64,000 nt of DNA from an uncultured Gammaproteobacteria bacterium (GCA_964402565.1 CAYOCJ010000002.1:661-64660); one strand, 5' to 3'; numbered from the stretch's first letter, positions 22,066 to 35,440 are shown. The notes: generated by a model from the sequence alone, not told the origin. Program-made: numbers and translations.

Positions 22066-22384
22066 ATCCAACAGTAGCATATTCCGAGCCGAGACCCAGG
22101 AAGCATCCACTGAAGACGAACCATCCCGTGAGAACTGTTAGTCACTTTTTCTTAAGCTGTCGACTGCTGCGGACGGCATACTCATTCACTCAGACTATTC
22201 CACCAAAGAATATTCTTTTTTTCATATCAACGAGACACTTCGACGGCTTATTTTTCTCTCAAGGTACTTACTGACCTAAGTATCCTAACAAAGACTCGCT
22301 CACAGTTCAATATTTTTCTGCAAACAAAAACGCCCACCGTGCACACTACGCACGGCAGGCAACTGTTTTCGTTCAAGGCAGGCC

Positions 22385-22909
22385 TTACGACCGTCTTTCC
22401 ACCGCAACTCGCGAGAAACGATACTCGGCCTTCTTGCGCTCCTGCAGCACCCGCACTTCGTGACGAAGCAGCAGCGCGGGGTGCTCTCGCTTCAGGGAAT
22501 GCACATCGATGAAGTGCAGATGCGTGACCAGAATTTCGGCGAGCGTCTCGAACGGATTGTTTCCGCCGGGATGCTGGGCGATCACGGCGTCGATCAGAGG
22601 ATTGTCCGTGTCGATGCCGTCCAGGCTGAACTGCGTGAAAAGGATGAAGATCCCTTTCGGGTACTTCGCCTTGAAACGCTGAGCGAAGGCCGTGCCGGAA
22701 CCGCCGTCGAGCAGACGCTCACCGGCGATCATACAGACCTCCTGGTTGTTCGCAAAAAACGAGATCTCGCTCATCGCGATGCCGAACTCGTCGTAAGCGT
22801 CAGTGAGATTGGTGTGCAGACGCTCGTCCTTGCGACGAAGTTTAGCAGCCAAGGCTTCCTTGAGGTGACCGCGACTATCAGGGCGACTCAAAACGACGCA
22901 GTAATACAC
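22385..22909 (-). CDS. Hypothetical protein, possibly nucleoside 2-deoxyribosyltransferase-like fold; first gene of the GC-rich island
   Basis: 174 aa. YYCVVLSRPDSRG...LLDGGSGTAFAQRF...KGIFILF loosely resembles the NDT/Rcl family from memory. The expected catalytic Glu after GTAF is Ala. Confidence 0.25.
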   Translation of the reverse strand: MYYCVVLSRPDSRGHLKEALAAKLRRKDERLHTNLTDAYDEFGIAMSEISFFANNQEVCMIAGERLLDGGSGTAFAQRFKAKYPKGIFILFTQFSLDGIDTDNPLIDAVIAQHPGGNNPFETLAEILVTHLHFIDVHSLKREHPALLLRHEVRVLQERKKAEYRFSRVAVERRS

Positions 22910-23050
22910 GTTTCTTCTCCTATGCCTTGAAAGGAAACATTAAATGAACCCGCGCCCTACTCGCACTATGCGAGCAGAACAAACTAAACACCTACTATAC
23001 ATAATCTACTTTAAAAAGTCAAGTACCAGAAAATTTCAACCTACTCAGCA

Positions 23051-23080
23051 AAAGCAAAAAGGTTAGCCATAGCTAACCTT
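23051..23080 (-). terminator. Rho-independent terminator closing the minus-strand pyrF-PRTase-microORF unit
   Basis: aaggttagc-cata-gctaacctt. On the minus strand it is followed by TTTTTGCTTTT. Confidence 0.6.
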
Positions 23081-23141
23081 TGCCTCCTCCGCAGCCTCCT
23101 ATTCTGCGGTTTGTTATGAGTGAATGAGCGGCCGCGCTCGC

Positions 23142-31249: not shown

Positions 31250-31990
31250 AAATAAAAGGGGGACCAACGAACGTTCTTGCGAACGCCCGAAGGTCCCCCA
31301 GGGACAGAAACTGCACAGGTTGACCTGTGCACCCACCGCTTGATGCGGTCTCACTATCGCCGGCCGGCGGACGTTCGCGCGACCTGGTAGGGTCGGCATT
31401 ACGCGCCCATCGCGTGGGGTTGAGTGGCGCTACAGAGGCCGCCGCTCGCTGCGATGAATGAGGTGAGGTTTGGGAGTCCTCACAAACGTAGGGTCGATCG
31501 GGTGCGGCTCACCATGGGGTCTTGTGCTGGCGCGGGCACGACCTGTTGGGAGGGAAGGATATAATCCTTGTGCTACCCGGTTGGTCTGCCGCATGTGCGA
31601 GCTCTACCCCCTCTTAGCAGAGGCAACTGTTGGTCTTTCGACCGTGATGATGTCAGCGACGCTGCGCGTCGAACGCGGGAACCGCGCCCCCCTTCTTGAC
31701 GTTTAGCTGCATCTTCGCATGCTCCTCTGCCGACCACCTGTCGGCTGACAGTTGTGGCGTCGAGCGCCTGTGTGCCGACCTACTGAACGCGGACCGTAAC
31801 CGCGCGTACGTCGACGTACATGCGCTTCAGGAAGTCGCGGAGGTCGGCTGAGTCTGGCCCGAGCCGGCGCCGACGGCCTTGGTCGTGGTCACGGAGTCGC
31901 TACGCAACTGGTCTTTCATGATGGTGTGGAAAAAATCTCCCGGACCGAGCCTCAAGCAGCACCTCTCTTCCTTGACCATGCCGAAACGTC
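31250..31990. other. GC-rich ~740-bp stretch without any long ORF, rich in stable hairpins; candidate structured ncRNA or gene remnant
   Basis: Examples: gggggacc...ggtccccc at 31256-31297; gagctctaccccctcttagcagaggc. Every frame is broken, which is unusual for GC-rich sequence. The longest ORFs are 78 and 61 aa. Confidence 0.3.
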
Positions 31991-32392
31991 CCATACGTCT
32001 ATCGATGGCCAAGAAAAGACTAACTTGCTCTATTCCTTATACTTTCCGTTAACAAGTAAGTATCGGCTGAGCTTGCTATCCTCAAGATGCTCGTCATTAC
32101 GAGTCTGGATAGCAGCTTTCATTAGACAGCATGGCTGCCTACTTGATACAAAATTAGCCTTTTCTTGGCCACTATTTCAAAGATAAAAAGATCAAAATAT
32201 GTAACAATCAAGTACTATATCAGGTTATTGAAAACCTGTCAAGTGGAACAAAAAATGATCTTGCGCCTATCACTATTTTTTCGTAAGGTAGCTCTGCATC
32301 CCACAGAAAGCCTAAGTGGGATTTCATGTCCTTTGACAGAACGAAACTACTTACCCCCACCGTACATCTCACGACTTGAGGAGGAATACACA

Positions 32393-33904
32393 ATGTACCC
32401 GAAAGACGGATTCTTTGCGGATATGGCGAGGCTCAGGTTGGCACTCGCTTTCAAGGAAGTACGGCTCAAGACTAGCTACACAGAAGTACAGCCAGCCGAT
32501 GTTTCGATCATGTCGCGCTTCTCGCGTCGGGTGCAATTGAAGATCCCGATCCTGTCTGCCGCGATGGACACTGTGACGGGTACAAGAATGGCCATTGCCA
32601 TGGCGAAGCTCGGAGGTCTCGGAATCATTCATCGAAACCTCGGTCCCAAAGAGCAGGCGGCAAAGGTCGCCCGTACCAAGTTGTTCATGAACGGCTTGAT
32701 CGAAAAACCTATATGGGTCCGGGATACGGACACGATCGAGGTCATCGACAAGCGCCGCGCCGAGAATCGTTGGAGCTTCTACAGCTTCCCTGTTCTCGAC
32801 GCGAATCATCGACTCATCGGCCTGCTCACACAGAACGATTTCACGTTCGGTGCAGATTCCTGTCTGACCGCACGGGATATCATGACAACAGATGTCATCA
32901 CCGCCAAGACCGAAACGACGTTCGACCAGGCCTATGACATTATGCATCGCGCAAAAAAGAAGGTGCTCCCGCTCGTCGACGACGAAAACAAGCTCACGGG
33001 TCTATACGTGTTTTCAGATGTCACTCGTCTGAAGACAGGATCCTCCACGAACTACAATCTCGATCCGAAAGGGCAACTCCGCGTCGGTGCTGCCATCGGT
33101 CTGTATGACGATGCATTGCAGCGCCTTGAAGCTCTCGCTGAAAAAGGCGTGGATGTGGTCGTGATCGACCAAGCGCATGGCGACAGCAAAGTCATGCAAG
33201 AAACTCTCGCGCTGATCCGAAAGGATTCGCGTTTCAACGACATCGACGTGGTCGCCGGCAATATCTCCCAAGGGATCTCAGCGAAACATCTTGTCGACTG
33301 GGGCGCCGATGGCGTCAAAGTAGGACAAGGACCGGGCAGCATCTGTACTACCCGCGTGGTCGCCGGTATCGGTTGTCCGCAAGTTACTGCTGTATATCAA
33401 TGCGCTCTAGCCATCCGCGGTTCGGATGTGCCAGTGTGCGCGGACGGCGGCATCGTCTTTACCGGCGATATCCCTATCGCACTCGCGACCGGAGCGCACT
33501 CAGTCATGCTCGGTCGTGTTCTCGCTGGAACAACCGAAGCCCCCGGCGAAGTCATGACATTCCGTGGCACACAGGTGAAGGCCTATCGCGGGATGGGTTC
33601 GCTCGGCGCCATGGAGGCGAGCAAGTCTTCACGCGAACGTTACGCAGAGAGCTCAGCCGTTCGTAATCAGCTCATTCCTGAGGGCGTCGAAGGTGTCGTC
33701 CCCTATGACGGCGACCTGGAACCGGTGCTCCATCAGTTCATCGGCGGACTTCGTAAAGGCATGTGGTACGCCGGTGCTGCGACCCTGGATGAGCTGCATA
33801 AAAAAGCTGATTTCGACCGGAATACTAACGCGGGATTCGAAGAGTCCCGTCCGCATGACATCATCATTACCAAAGACGCTCCCAACTACAAAGGCGGTGC
33901 ATAA
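32393..33904 (+). CDS. guaB: IMP dehydrogenase
   Basis: [11 protein letters not shown], tandem CBS insert, [10 protein letters not shown] catalytic-Cys loop, ADGGI. Start at the ATG preceded by GGAGG, not at the upstream in-frame Met of the track. Confidence 0.85.
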
Positions 33905-35424
33905 TGAATCCTGTTCTCAATCTGCTTCGCGGCCTCAAAGTGGTCGCGATCGTGTGCACCCAATGGGGAGACACGGGCAAAGGCAAGCTGGTCGATCTGT
34001 TCGCGGACTGGTCAGATATGGTCATCCGAGGAACTGGTGGCGCTAACGCAGGGCACACCATCGTCGCCAACGGCAAACGACTGGCCTTTCACCTGATCCC
34101 ATCCGGCATCTTGCGAGACAAACAACGCAAGAAAAGCATAATCGGATCTGGCGTTGCTCTCGATCCCGCAATACTGCTCGGGGAGATCGCCAAGCTCGAC
34201 ACTGAAGGGCTGACCTGGGATCATCTCTACATCTCGCATCGGGCGAAATTGGTGCTGCCGCAGCATCTGGTCGCCGACCGCATCCGCGAAGCGAAAGCCA
34301 AGGGCGCGAAGATCGGCACCACGGGTCGAGGCATCGGTCCGTGCTATACCGATCACATCCGACGAAGCGGTCTGGTTGCAAATGATCTCCTCAACCGAGA
34401 CTCATTTGTTGCAAAACTACGGGAAAACCTTGCAGAGCACAAGCATTACCTCGATGGCTTCGAAGAAGATCTGATCGCCGAGATCATGCAACATGAGCAT
34501 CTGGCGAATGGCAGCTACTACGAAGCCGGAAAGATCTTCAACGAAGATGCGATAGTCGATGCATACATGCGCTACGCTGAAGTTCTGAACGAGTCAATCG
34601 TCGACACCGACGAGATGATCCGCGAGGAACTCAGTCGAGGCAAGCGAGCGCTCCTGGAAGGCGCTCAAGGCCACCTGCTGTCGATCGATCATGGCAACTA
34701 CCCCTATGTCACGTCCAGCGACTGCACGGTCACCGGCCTTGCGAAAGGAGCTGGCCTCTTCGATCGCGATATCGATCTCACGATCGGGATCGTGAAAGCC
34801 TACGCGACACGTGTCGGCGCAGGACCTTTCCCGACGGAGCTCGGCGACTCCGCCTCGGACCGCTGGTGCAATACTGCGGGTGTCAATGAGGCGCTCGAGC
34901 GAGAACGCTATGCGAATACTGATCGCCTTCTCGACAGCGGTCCTTTCGCACTCGGCGTCTGGCTCAGACGCAAAGGCGCTGAGTACGGCACCACGACCAA
35001 GCGTCCGCGCAGGGTCGGCTGGCATGATGGCGTCCTGCTACGCTATGTCACAGACCGGATGCCGAAGAATACTATCCTCGCGGTGACCAAGCTCGATGTC
35101 TTGAGCGGACTCAAGGAGATCCCGGTCTGCGATCGGTATGAGTATCAGGGCCCTGACTACCAACTTGGTGCAGACCCGTGGTTCTCCGGCAAACGCGTGA
35201 ATGAGGGCGACAGTGATGCCGCCTTCCTCGCGCACTGTCACCCCTTGTACGAAAAGTACCCCGGCTGGACCAAGCCAATCGATGAGATCACCAGCTGCGC
35301 GAAACTGCCGCGGGCGGCACGGAACTACCTCGATGTAATCGAGCGCAGTGGCGGCCGGCCCTTGTCGATCGTCTCGGTGGGTCCTGACCGCGAGCAGACT
35401 TTCGTCCGAGAAAGTAGGTTGTAG
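33904..35424 (+). CDS. purA: Adenylosuccinate synthetase (long form, 506 aa)
   Basis: [12 protein letters not shown]...[14 protein letters not shown]. Overlaps the guaB stop (ATGA). Confidence 0.8.
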
Positions 35425-35440
35425 TTTCGAAAAAAGCAGT

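Follow-up and report, generated by a model that had tools for sequence, protein, structure and literature searches.

Candidate Phyla Radiation (CPR) bacteria are thought to be host-dependent for nucleotides. CPR genomes are generally without nucleotide biosynthesis (PMC4508563, PMC7304191), and where their metabolic genes are linked, these have decoupled histories shaped by lateral gene transfer (Jaffe et al. 2020, PMC7304191). Here, we analyze a stretch of 64,000 nucleotides (the window; GCA_964402565.1, CAYOCJ010000002.1:661-64660), recorded as DNA of an uncultured Gammaproteobacteria bacterium, and within it a GC-rich interval at 22300-35440 that holds genes for nucleotide enzymes, an exporter, a sigma factor and a ParB-like protein. 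The original prediction saw in this interval an abrupt island of incomplete, divergent nucleotide-metabolism genes, and proposed either a nucleoside-analogue biosynthesis and self-resistance cluster or a laterally acquired salvage module. We find that the window is chromosome of a CPR (Patescibacteria) bacterium near oriC, and that the interval is probably a lineage-conserved gene neighborhood that has been replaced piecemeal, its GC-rich genes having a history other than that of the backbone. We reject the idea of a nucleoside-antibiotic cluster, and in this sense our main result is negative; overall, the locus offers a new example of a known phenomenon, of modest novelty.

Base composition and conservation of the locus

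Sliding-window composition gives 49.0 % G+C for the left flank (1-22300), 46.7 % for the right flank (35441-62000) and 54.8 % for the interval taken whole. The shift, of about 9 points, is discontinuous, with two stretches that break the GC-rich DNA into patches:

22300-27100, GC-rich segment, 56.6 % G+C
27100-28850, pair of ABC transporter genes, 45.8 % G+C
28850-32000, GC-rich segment, 57.1 % G+C
32000-32393, promoter gap, 39.6 % G+C
32394-35440, GC-rich segment, 56.8 % G+C

Thus, the anomaly and its two edges are real, as predicted, but the proposed rise from the mid-40s to about 60 % was too large, and foreign composition does not run through the interval as a single contiguous block. At the level of genes, mean GC is 0.571 for nine GC-rich genes versus 0.478 for 38 backbone genes (Mann-Whitney p = 5e-6), and G+C at third codon positions (GC3) is 0.68 versus 0.51 (p = 5e-6); first positions (GC1) are shifted too. 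The products of the GC-rich genes are enriched in G, A, R and P and depleted of F, Y, M, I, N and K relative to those of the backbone. Composition-normalized tetranucleotide usage correlates at 0.91 between the two halves of the backbone and at 0.70 between the GC-rich genes and the backbone. Antisense open reading frames (ORFs) of great length are present in the interval, as had been noted. Both compositional edges coincide with gene ends. On the right, the edge is the predicted purA terminator, across which GC falls from 0.61 to 0.44:

35443-35480, hairpin CCCCGCC...GGCGGGG followed by the T-run TTTTTTTATT, between convergent purA and a hydrolase gene

Isolated GC-rich stretches or ORFs also occur at 11793-12440, 55513-55827 and 62879-64000 (GC3 0.73-0.87), without Pfam match, and the mosaic therefore extends beyond the interval first reported.

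A single, recently acquired genomic island with a salvage module would explain why composition changes abruptly at both ends, at gene ends and terminators, and the two tRNA genes that lie 1.1 kb past the right end, beyond two backbone genes, would suit it as well. However, genes of backbone composition interrupt the interval, a Pfam scan of the window found no integrase, transposase or relaxase, and no direct repeats were found flanking the interval. Moreover, related genomes carry a syntenic cluster beside the same ssb and ABC genes, and the protein families are CPR-typical. We consider a single island improbable.

The genes of the interval, which we compare below with those of related loci, are the following:

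22385-22909, minus strand, p174, an ORFan gene with a promoter-like site at 23022-22994 and an AGGAG ribosome-binding site
23257-24027, minus strand, CPR-type phosphoribosyltransferase (PRTase), probably an orotate PRTase (PyrE analogue)
24074-24850, minus strand, pyrF, orotidine monophosphate (OMP) decarboxylase; NF001273, 229.8 bits against a cut-off of 193
25066-25395, minus strand, p109, a doubtful ORF with GC3 of 0.48, unlike its neighbors
25421-26698, minus strand, purD, glycinamide ribonucleotide synthetase; TIGR00877, 359 bits against a cut-off of 288
26726-27073, minus strand, p115, a small helical protein
27220-27981, minus strand, ABC-2 permease, GC 0.47; Pfam ABC2_membrane
27983-28774, minus strand, ABC ATPase, GC 0.45; Pfam ABC_tran
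28860-30140, minus strand, RpoD-like sigma-70 of 426 aa; Pfam sigma regions 2, 3 and 4
30188-31114, minus strand, ParB/Spo0J-family protein; ParB_N, HTH_ParB; TIGR00180, 92 bits against a cut-off of 58
32393-33904, plus strand, guaB, inosine monophosphate (IMP) dehydrogenase of 503 aa with CBS domain; Pfam IMPDH, 6.9e-132
33904-35424, plus strand, purA, adenylosuccinate synthetase of the CPR 500-aa type, 506 aa; NF002223, 445.9 bits against a cut-off of 402

For the ABC pair, where L003 and the window are identical, the Pfam calls are those of a precomputed L003 gene table. L003 is an independent Logan contig, found by a purD look-up, that reproduces 22013-32172 of the window at ~100 % identity. 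It contains the low/high-GC junctions on either side of the ABC pair, so that assembly does not account for the mosaic. A chimera of two organisms' DNA could give sharp GC steps in a metagenome-derived contig, and the junctions at 32.17-32.39 kb and at 35.44 kb lie outside independent contig coverage. Yet L003 spans three of the GC steps, the related metagenome contigs L005 and L006 show the same mosaic with the cluster linked to ssb, and the steps fall at gene boundaries with promoters and terminators, which makes a chimera extremely improbable. It was also observed that the L003 and L006 contigs, from sister samples (SRR12313479, SRR12313480), share their two breakpoints, both at conserved non-coding elements (window 22013/21990 and 32172/32173). 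This is likely an assembly effect of identical k-mers in co-occurring related strains, rather than a sign of mobility.

The layout of the locus is shared by its relatives. In L005, the order is ABC, ABC2, a small ORF, purD, pyrF, PRTase, a gene for a PurH-N-type IMP cyclohydrolase (IMPCH), sigma and SSB. In L006, it is sigma, ABC, ABC2, a 126-aa ORF, pyrF, PRTase, IMPCH and sigma, without purD, and the contig stops before ssb. Both have the GC mosaic of the window, with ABC genes at 0.44-0.48 and nucleotide genes at 0.56-0.62. Hence, while the predicted salvage module does differ in history from the backbone (in composition, oligonucleotides and affinities), the notion of one module gained in one event does not survive the shared layout of L005 and L006. 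Content varies around this layout: the window has parB, p174 and p109 and is without IMPCH and the second sigma gene. Conservation varies far more, as seen in identities between the window and its relatives, which for guaB and purA include L027, a contig from the same sample as L005:

SSB, window versus relatives, 89 % identity
ABC pair, window versus relatives, 75-87 % identity
PurA, window versus L027, 71 % identity
PRTase, window versus relatives, 57-67 % identity
GuaB, window versus L027, 48 % identity
PurD, window versus L005, 41 % identity
p115, window versus L005 (a 100-aa ORF at the same position), 36 % identity
PyrF, window versus L005 and L006, 32-41 % identity
sigma, window versus relatives, 27-42 % identity

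Backbone genes are thus 75-89 % identical to those of the relatives and GC-rich genes 27-71 %; non-coding stretches are 79-96 % identical. The affinities of adjacent genes clash as well, PurA being nearer to L027 than to the CPR locus L001 (53 %) and GuaB nearer to L001 (54 %) than to L027. Since relatives share the layout and the mosaic, the GC-rich genes are far more diverged, and affinities are in conflict, gene-by-gene replacement is the likeliest reading. In this scenario, the interval would be the origin-proximal neighborhood in which a Parcubacteria-like CPR bacterium gathers its few nucleotide-conversion enzymes. Elevated G+C would belong to the genes one by one rather than to a single inserted block, and would reflect repeated replacement of, or recombination with, alleles from presumed higher-GC donors, mostly other CPR. 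Replacement would have taken place at a conserved locus, with no recent insertion of an island. Higher-GC CPR genomes do exist, L001 having 56 % GC, and the decoupled, transfer-shaped gene histories described in CPR (PMC7304191) agree with replacement at the level of genes.

Several observations weigh against piecemeal replacement. The purD tree groups the window with L005, which a single old acquisition followed by fast divergence fits equally well. L005 and L027 come from one sample and are not proven to be one genome. The same gene families are slightly GC-richer in unrelated CPR loci (L007, L025, L001), so part of the GC shift may be intrinsic to the genes. Finally, sigma and ParB are core genes, for which replacement is less likely. 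A serious alternative is that the genes are native and vertically inherited, with gene-specific constraints or some local process (for instance, GC-biased gene conversion where the locus is prone to recombination) behind their high G+C and fast divergence. In line with this, high GC marks these families at the matching locus of three related genomes, purD of the window clusters with that of L005, PRTase, pyrF, guaB and purA are modestly GC-richer than their neighbors in the unrelated loci just named, and the core genes for sigma and ParB are among the GC-rich set. On the other side stand the size of the GC3 shift (+0.17), the shifted GC1 and the distinct tetranucleotide signature (0.70 versus 0.91), the discordant affinities of GuaB and PurA, a pyrF that is more canonical in the window than in the relatives, and the variable presence or absence of parB, purD, IMPCH, the second sigma gene and p174 among relatives. 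Taken together, these make a purely local process rather unlikely, and gene-by-gene replacement remains our preferred explanation.

Enzymes, exporter and regulators of the interval

The PRTase belongs to a family of which 612 homologues were found, and all of the organism-named ones are CPR (Liptonbacteria, Uhrbacteria, Komeilibacteria, Staskawiczbacteria). The loop that binds phosphoribosyl pyrophosphate (PRPP) is canonically of the type D-D/E-x-x-T-(T/A)-G. In the window PRTase, it reads E152-D153-V-C-N156-N157-F-S-T160-T (EDVCNNFSTT) in place of the TTG-type, and this form is invariant across the family. When the family profile was compared with the PDB, orotate PRTases matched best (4paw, 2.5e-9; 2wns, 1.4e-6); the curated PyrE models score far under their cut-offs (TIGR01367, 35.9 versus 150; TIGR00336, 24 versus 106.8). 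Adjacency of pyrF and the PRTase gene is seen in the window, L005, L006 and L024-26, i.e., in four independent contexts, the PRTase gene coming directly after pyrF. Most likely, the window PRTase is a CPR analogue of PyrE, predicted to convert orotate and PRPP to OMP. It resembles described orotate PRTases in its type-I PRTase fold signal, the acidic E-D of the PRPP loop, its best profile matches and its pyrF neighbor. It differs from them in the loop EDVCNNFSTT, in an N-terminal extension of about 60 aa (CGGYYECPKD...GPLVGYAG) and in its low scores against NCBIfam pyrE models.

PyrF has the D-x-K-x-x-D motif (FLDGKENDIPNT) and GRPI, both of which align with the solved structure 3ldv. Whereas the window protein passes the bacterial equivalog cut-off, PyrF of L005 and of L006, which are 56 % identical to each other, fall under it. 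PurD aligns full length to the solved PurD 5vev and retains NTGGMGAYSP and NCRFGDPE; its best database matches are 45-49 % identical. In a neighbor-joining tree, the window gene groups with purD of L005 and L004 on a long branch. Separate acquisition of purD in the window and in L005 was considered and is unproven, the two being only 41 % identical yet grouped in that tree. No other pur biosynthesis genes lie beside purD within the window (guaB and purA aside), and PurD is likewise alone in L005.

GuaB scores 474.7 bits against TIGR01302, just under the cut-off of 481.5. Its start codon (ATG at 32393) follows GAGGAGG, and the catalytic-loop motif GPGSICTT is present in the translation. PurA carries the motifs GD(T)GKGK, NAGHT, EGAQG, TT-K-R-P-RR and TKLD, which align to solved structures of bacterial PurA (3hid and 1kjx, the latter a variant of E. 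coli PurA). The single motif change is E to T in GDEGKGK, and the added length consists of insertions. All 120 matches listed are 489-520 aa long, so that 506 aa is normal for the CPR type; among the matches listed, 10 of the 11 with named organisms are CPR and one is a Candidatus Pacearchaeota archaeon. An exact-protein look-up of PurA returned nothing on record. The adjacency of guaB and purA is also found in L001 and L027; this pairing and that of pyrF with the PRTase gene are typical of CPR. The description "incomplete, divergent" fits these enzymes only in part: PyrF, PurD and PurA exceed their equivalog cut-offs, GuaB lies just under its own, and the motifs of PurA, PyrF, PurD and GuaB are canonical. 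PurA and the PRTase have their closest relatives in CPR, and the active sites look canonical, which by the prediction's own terms largely refutes it.

Judged by family membership, the PRTase and PyrF would take orotate to OMP and on to uridine monophosphate (UMP), GuaB would take IMP to xanthosine monophosphate (XMP), and PurA would take IMP to adenylosuccinate.

The assignments of PRTase with altered PRPP loop, pyrF, purD, ABC-2 pair, sigma-70, ParB, guaB and a 506-aa purA hold up in Pfam and NCBIfam gene calls; those of the small ORFs fare less well. p174, described as NDT-like, shows no sequence similarity to NDT, has no match in Pfam, NCBIfam, PHROGs or the PDB, and has no homologue among 1.84 billion representative proteins. 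An AlphaFold2 (AF2) single-sequence model reached a pLDDT of 40. Its codon positions (GC3 0.73 > GC1 0.63 > GC2 0.37) are as expected of coding DNA. The corresponding position in relatives is held by a stand-alone IMP-cyclohydrolase-like gene and a second sigma factor. The former (L005 6005-6796, L006 6587-7357) lies directly after the PRTase gene, where the window has p174, and its product, of about 260 aa, matches PurH in the N-terminal IMP-cyclohydrolase (MGS-like) part alone. p109 has no family match and no counterpart in L005, and we found no support for a 41-aa Arg-rich peptide proposed earlier.

p115, predicted to be MazG/HisE-like, is unconfirmed as such: no match was obtained in Pfam, NCBIfam, PHROGs or the PDB, its AF2 single-sequence model has a pLDDT of 59, and fold searches with p115 and p174 gave no match better than E = 3. 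It shares KLVRD-IP, EEA-E and E-AD with the L005 ORF. At the level of motifs, with the family unconfirmed, we take KLVRDKIP, EExxE and E-AD to resemble MazG and other all-alpha NTP pyrophosphatases, and p115 is possibly such an enzyme. A cluster look-up of ten window proteins gave no names and no close members.

The ABC pair is the best-conserved part of the locus in comparison with L005 and L006. With a GC like that of the backbone and 75-87 % conservation, against 32-67 % for the nucleotide genes, the exporter stands apart from the nucleotide gene set in composition and in evolution. A scan of GTDB genomes with the ABC-2 permease found only relatives of 40-44 % identity (Legionella, Rhodospirillaceae, Margulisiibacteriota, Giovannonibacteria), and a scan of JGI metagenomes with the permease alignment found one relative of 59 %, in a 39 % GC genome from which the cluster is absent.

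The sigma factor, whose start is taken from the independent gene call on L003, matches NCBIfam RpoD families under their cut-offs. The parB gene lies 28 kb from dnaA/dnaN and is missing at the matching position in L006; no ParA was found among the window ORFs scanned.

These data bear directly on the proposal of a nucleoside-analogue biosynthetic cluster, with an exporter and an NTP-sanitizing enzyme for self-protection. All that speaks for it is that nucleotide enzymes, a PRTase with an odd loop, a possible NTP pyrophosphatase and an exporter lie together. The odd loop, however, is invariant across a CPR-wide family of hundreds and is therefore not a local specialization. PyrF, PurD, GuaB and PurA are canonical and ordinary for CPR, and PurA, with 116 bits on the PurZ model NF038379, whose cut-off is 300, is not PurZ. 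Tailoring or scaffold enzymes were not seen, the domains found being all of primary nucleotide metabolism, transport, sigma and ParB. The exporter belongs to the backbone, MazG is unconfirmed as the identity of p115, and the GC-rich set also holds an RpoD-like sigma and ParB. An antibiotic cluster of this kind is very improbable.

What the locus does appear to offer is a view of the conversion steps that one lineage may keep, namely those from orotate to UMP and from IMP to XMP and to adenylosuccinate, together with a PurD that stands by itself within the window. The comparison suggests that nucleotide genes and a primary-type sigma turn over far faster than their backbone neighbors, a testable case of gene-by-gene exchange in ultra-small genomes. 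The widespread, uncharacterized CPR PRTase family is likely the missing PyrE, judging from family profiles and gene context. Two RNA candidates add to these leads: a structured one that would be new and, at the left edge, a small one.

Candidate RNAs and chromosomal setting

Between parB and guaB lies an ORF-free gap at 31115-32392. The original prediction placed a 740-bp structured non-coding stretch here; the gap measures ~1.28 kb, and it does contain a candidate structured RNA:

31250-32205, minus strand, candidate structured non-coding RNA of ~0.95 kb, a promoter-to-terminator unit divergent from guaB
32006-32173, minus strand, conserved block A, 87 % identity to L006, with a 26-bp closing stem
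31514-31748, minus strand, conserved block B, 79 % identity to L006

The promoter at 32242-32214 (TTGACA-17-TG-TATAGT) agrees with consensus at 11/12 positions and has a near-consensus extended -10 element. The terminator, at 31300-31250, consists of the hairpin GGGGGACC...GGTCCCCC and a T-run. No ORF longer than 61 aa is found on the minus strand of the gap. Single-sequence folding of the gap gives z-scores of -6.2 for the minus strand and -3.4 for the plus strand. Blocks A and B lie upstream of a sigma gene in L006, and comparison of these two homologous sequences, the only two known, shows 6 compensatory changes in 121 predicted pairs and several changes of G-C to G-U, while no pair is broken. 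Stems are kept where one GNRA loop is exchanged for another (GAAA to GCAA). Consensus-fold z-scores relative to column shuffles are -10.4 and -4.0 for the minus strand, and weaker for the plus strand. Substitutions in the blocks lack 3-nt periodicity, and indels are of 1, 2 and 4 nt. A search of Rfam gave no match at gathering score, and at E up to 5-10 only chance matches arose, for the window as for L006; a viral-contig scan with the RNA core gave 0 matches.

Other identities for the gap were considered and rejected. RNase P RNA and tmRNA lack their signature motifs here, and Rfam and ARAGORN were empty. A decayed protein gene does not fit the stops in all frames, the lack of codon periodicity and indels that are not multiples of three. 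Block A is not a miniature inverted-repeat transposable element, as no second copy occurs in the window or the fetched loci.

We regard the unit at 31250-32205 as a credible candidate for an undescribed structured RNA. A bolder proposal, possible but on balance doubtful, is that this minus-strand unit is a new large structured RNA of CPR. It would be driven by a strong promoter just upstream of parB and sigma-70, with blocks A and B as its conserved core and peripheral helices that vary, and the neighboring GC-rich genes may be a sign that core and nucleotide genes are swapped among CPR at a hot spot of recombination.

A second candidate lies at the left edge:

21995-22070, plus strand, candidate small RNA bordering the GC-rich DNA

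It follows a promoter-like TTGACA-18-TACTAT at 21959-21988, and has two parts, the hairpin GATGCCGT...ACGGCATC and, after it, CCAAAAGTCCC-TTCG-GGGATTTTTGG with a T-run, which resembles a terminator. The stretch is nearly or fully invariant in L005 and L006 (96 % identity to L006), and Rfam returned no match for it.

The backbone genes that flank the interval encode trigger factor, H+-PPase, NusA, SSB, PGI, type IV secretion system (T4SS)-type pilins, PMT-type glycosyltransferases, YidC, DnaA and DnaN. A replication-origin region occupies 56000-62000, with bactofilin, YidC, dnaA (59260-60636) and dnaN (60886-61992), and the cumulative GC skew has its minimum, or turn, near 55-56 kb; it follows that the origin of replication of a small bacterial chromosome lies inside the window, whose source record is an NCBI contig of 512,989 bp. 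The nearest relatives of PurA and the PRTase are in Liptonbacteria, Zambryskibacteria, Sungbacteria, Falkowbacteria, Uhrbacteria, Komeilibacteria and Staskawiczbacteria, all Patescibacteria/CPR.

Elsewhere in the window, at least five small T4SS-pilin-like genes (PF18895/TrbC) form a run at 8629-11714, including a tandem pair of identical length and composition (9866-10243 and 10444-10821). An exact 16-nt direct repeat occurs at 36823-36838 and 36916-36931, one copy overlapping tRNA-Gly(GCC) at its 5′ end, with its partner 93 nt upstream; a tRNA-associated rearrangement may have left the repeat behind.

Comparison with known systems

Like GOLLD, ROOL, OLE, HEARO, raiA and 6S RNA, the RNA candidate is long, GC-rich and rich in hairpins; it too has a promoter and a terminator to itself, and a core that is conserved within a periphery that varies. 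Unlike them, it has no Rfam match, is represented by two sequences, and is linked to parB and sigma.

The phage PurZ/MazZ/DatZ cluster for 2-aminoadenine (Z) genomes also places a PurA-family enzyme near a putative all-alpha NTP pyrophosphatase. The window differs in that its PurA passes the PurA equivalog model but not that for PurZ, in its cellular context, and in the absence of DatZ.

With classical genomic islands, the interval shares deviant G+C and oligonucleotide usage, sharp edges and nearby tRNA genes; it departs from them in having no integrase or direct repeats, in the backbone genes that it encloses, and in being syntenic in relatives.

The closest parallel is found in the CPR gene sets of Jaffe et al. 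2020 (PMC7304191), which likewise concern reduced CPR genomes, linked nucleotide genes with decoupled histories, and transfer among CPR or from other taxa. What sets the window apart is a gene-by-gene GC mosaic at one origin-proximal locus, which includes an RpoD-like sigma and ParB.

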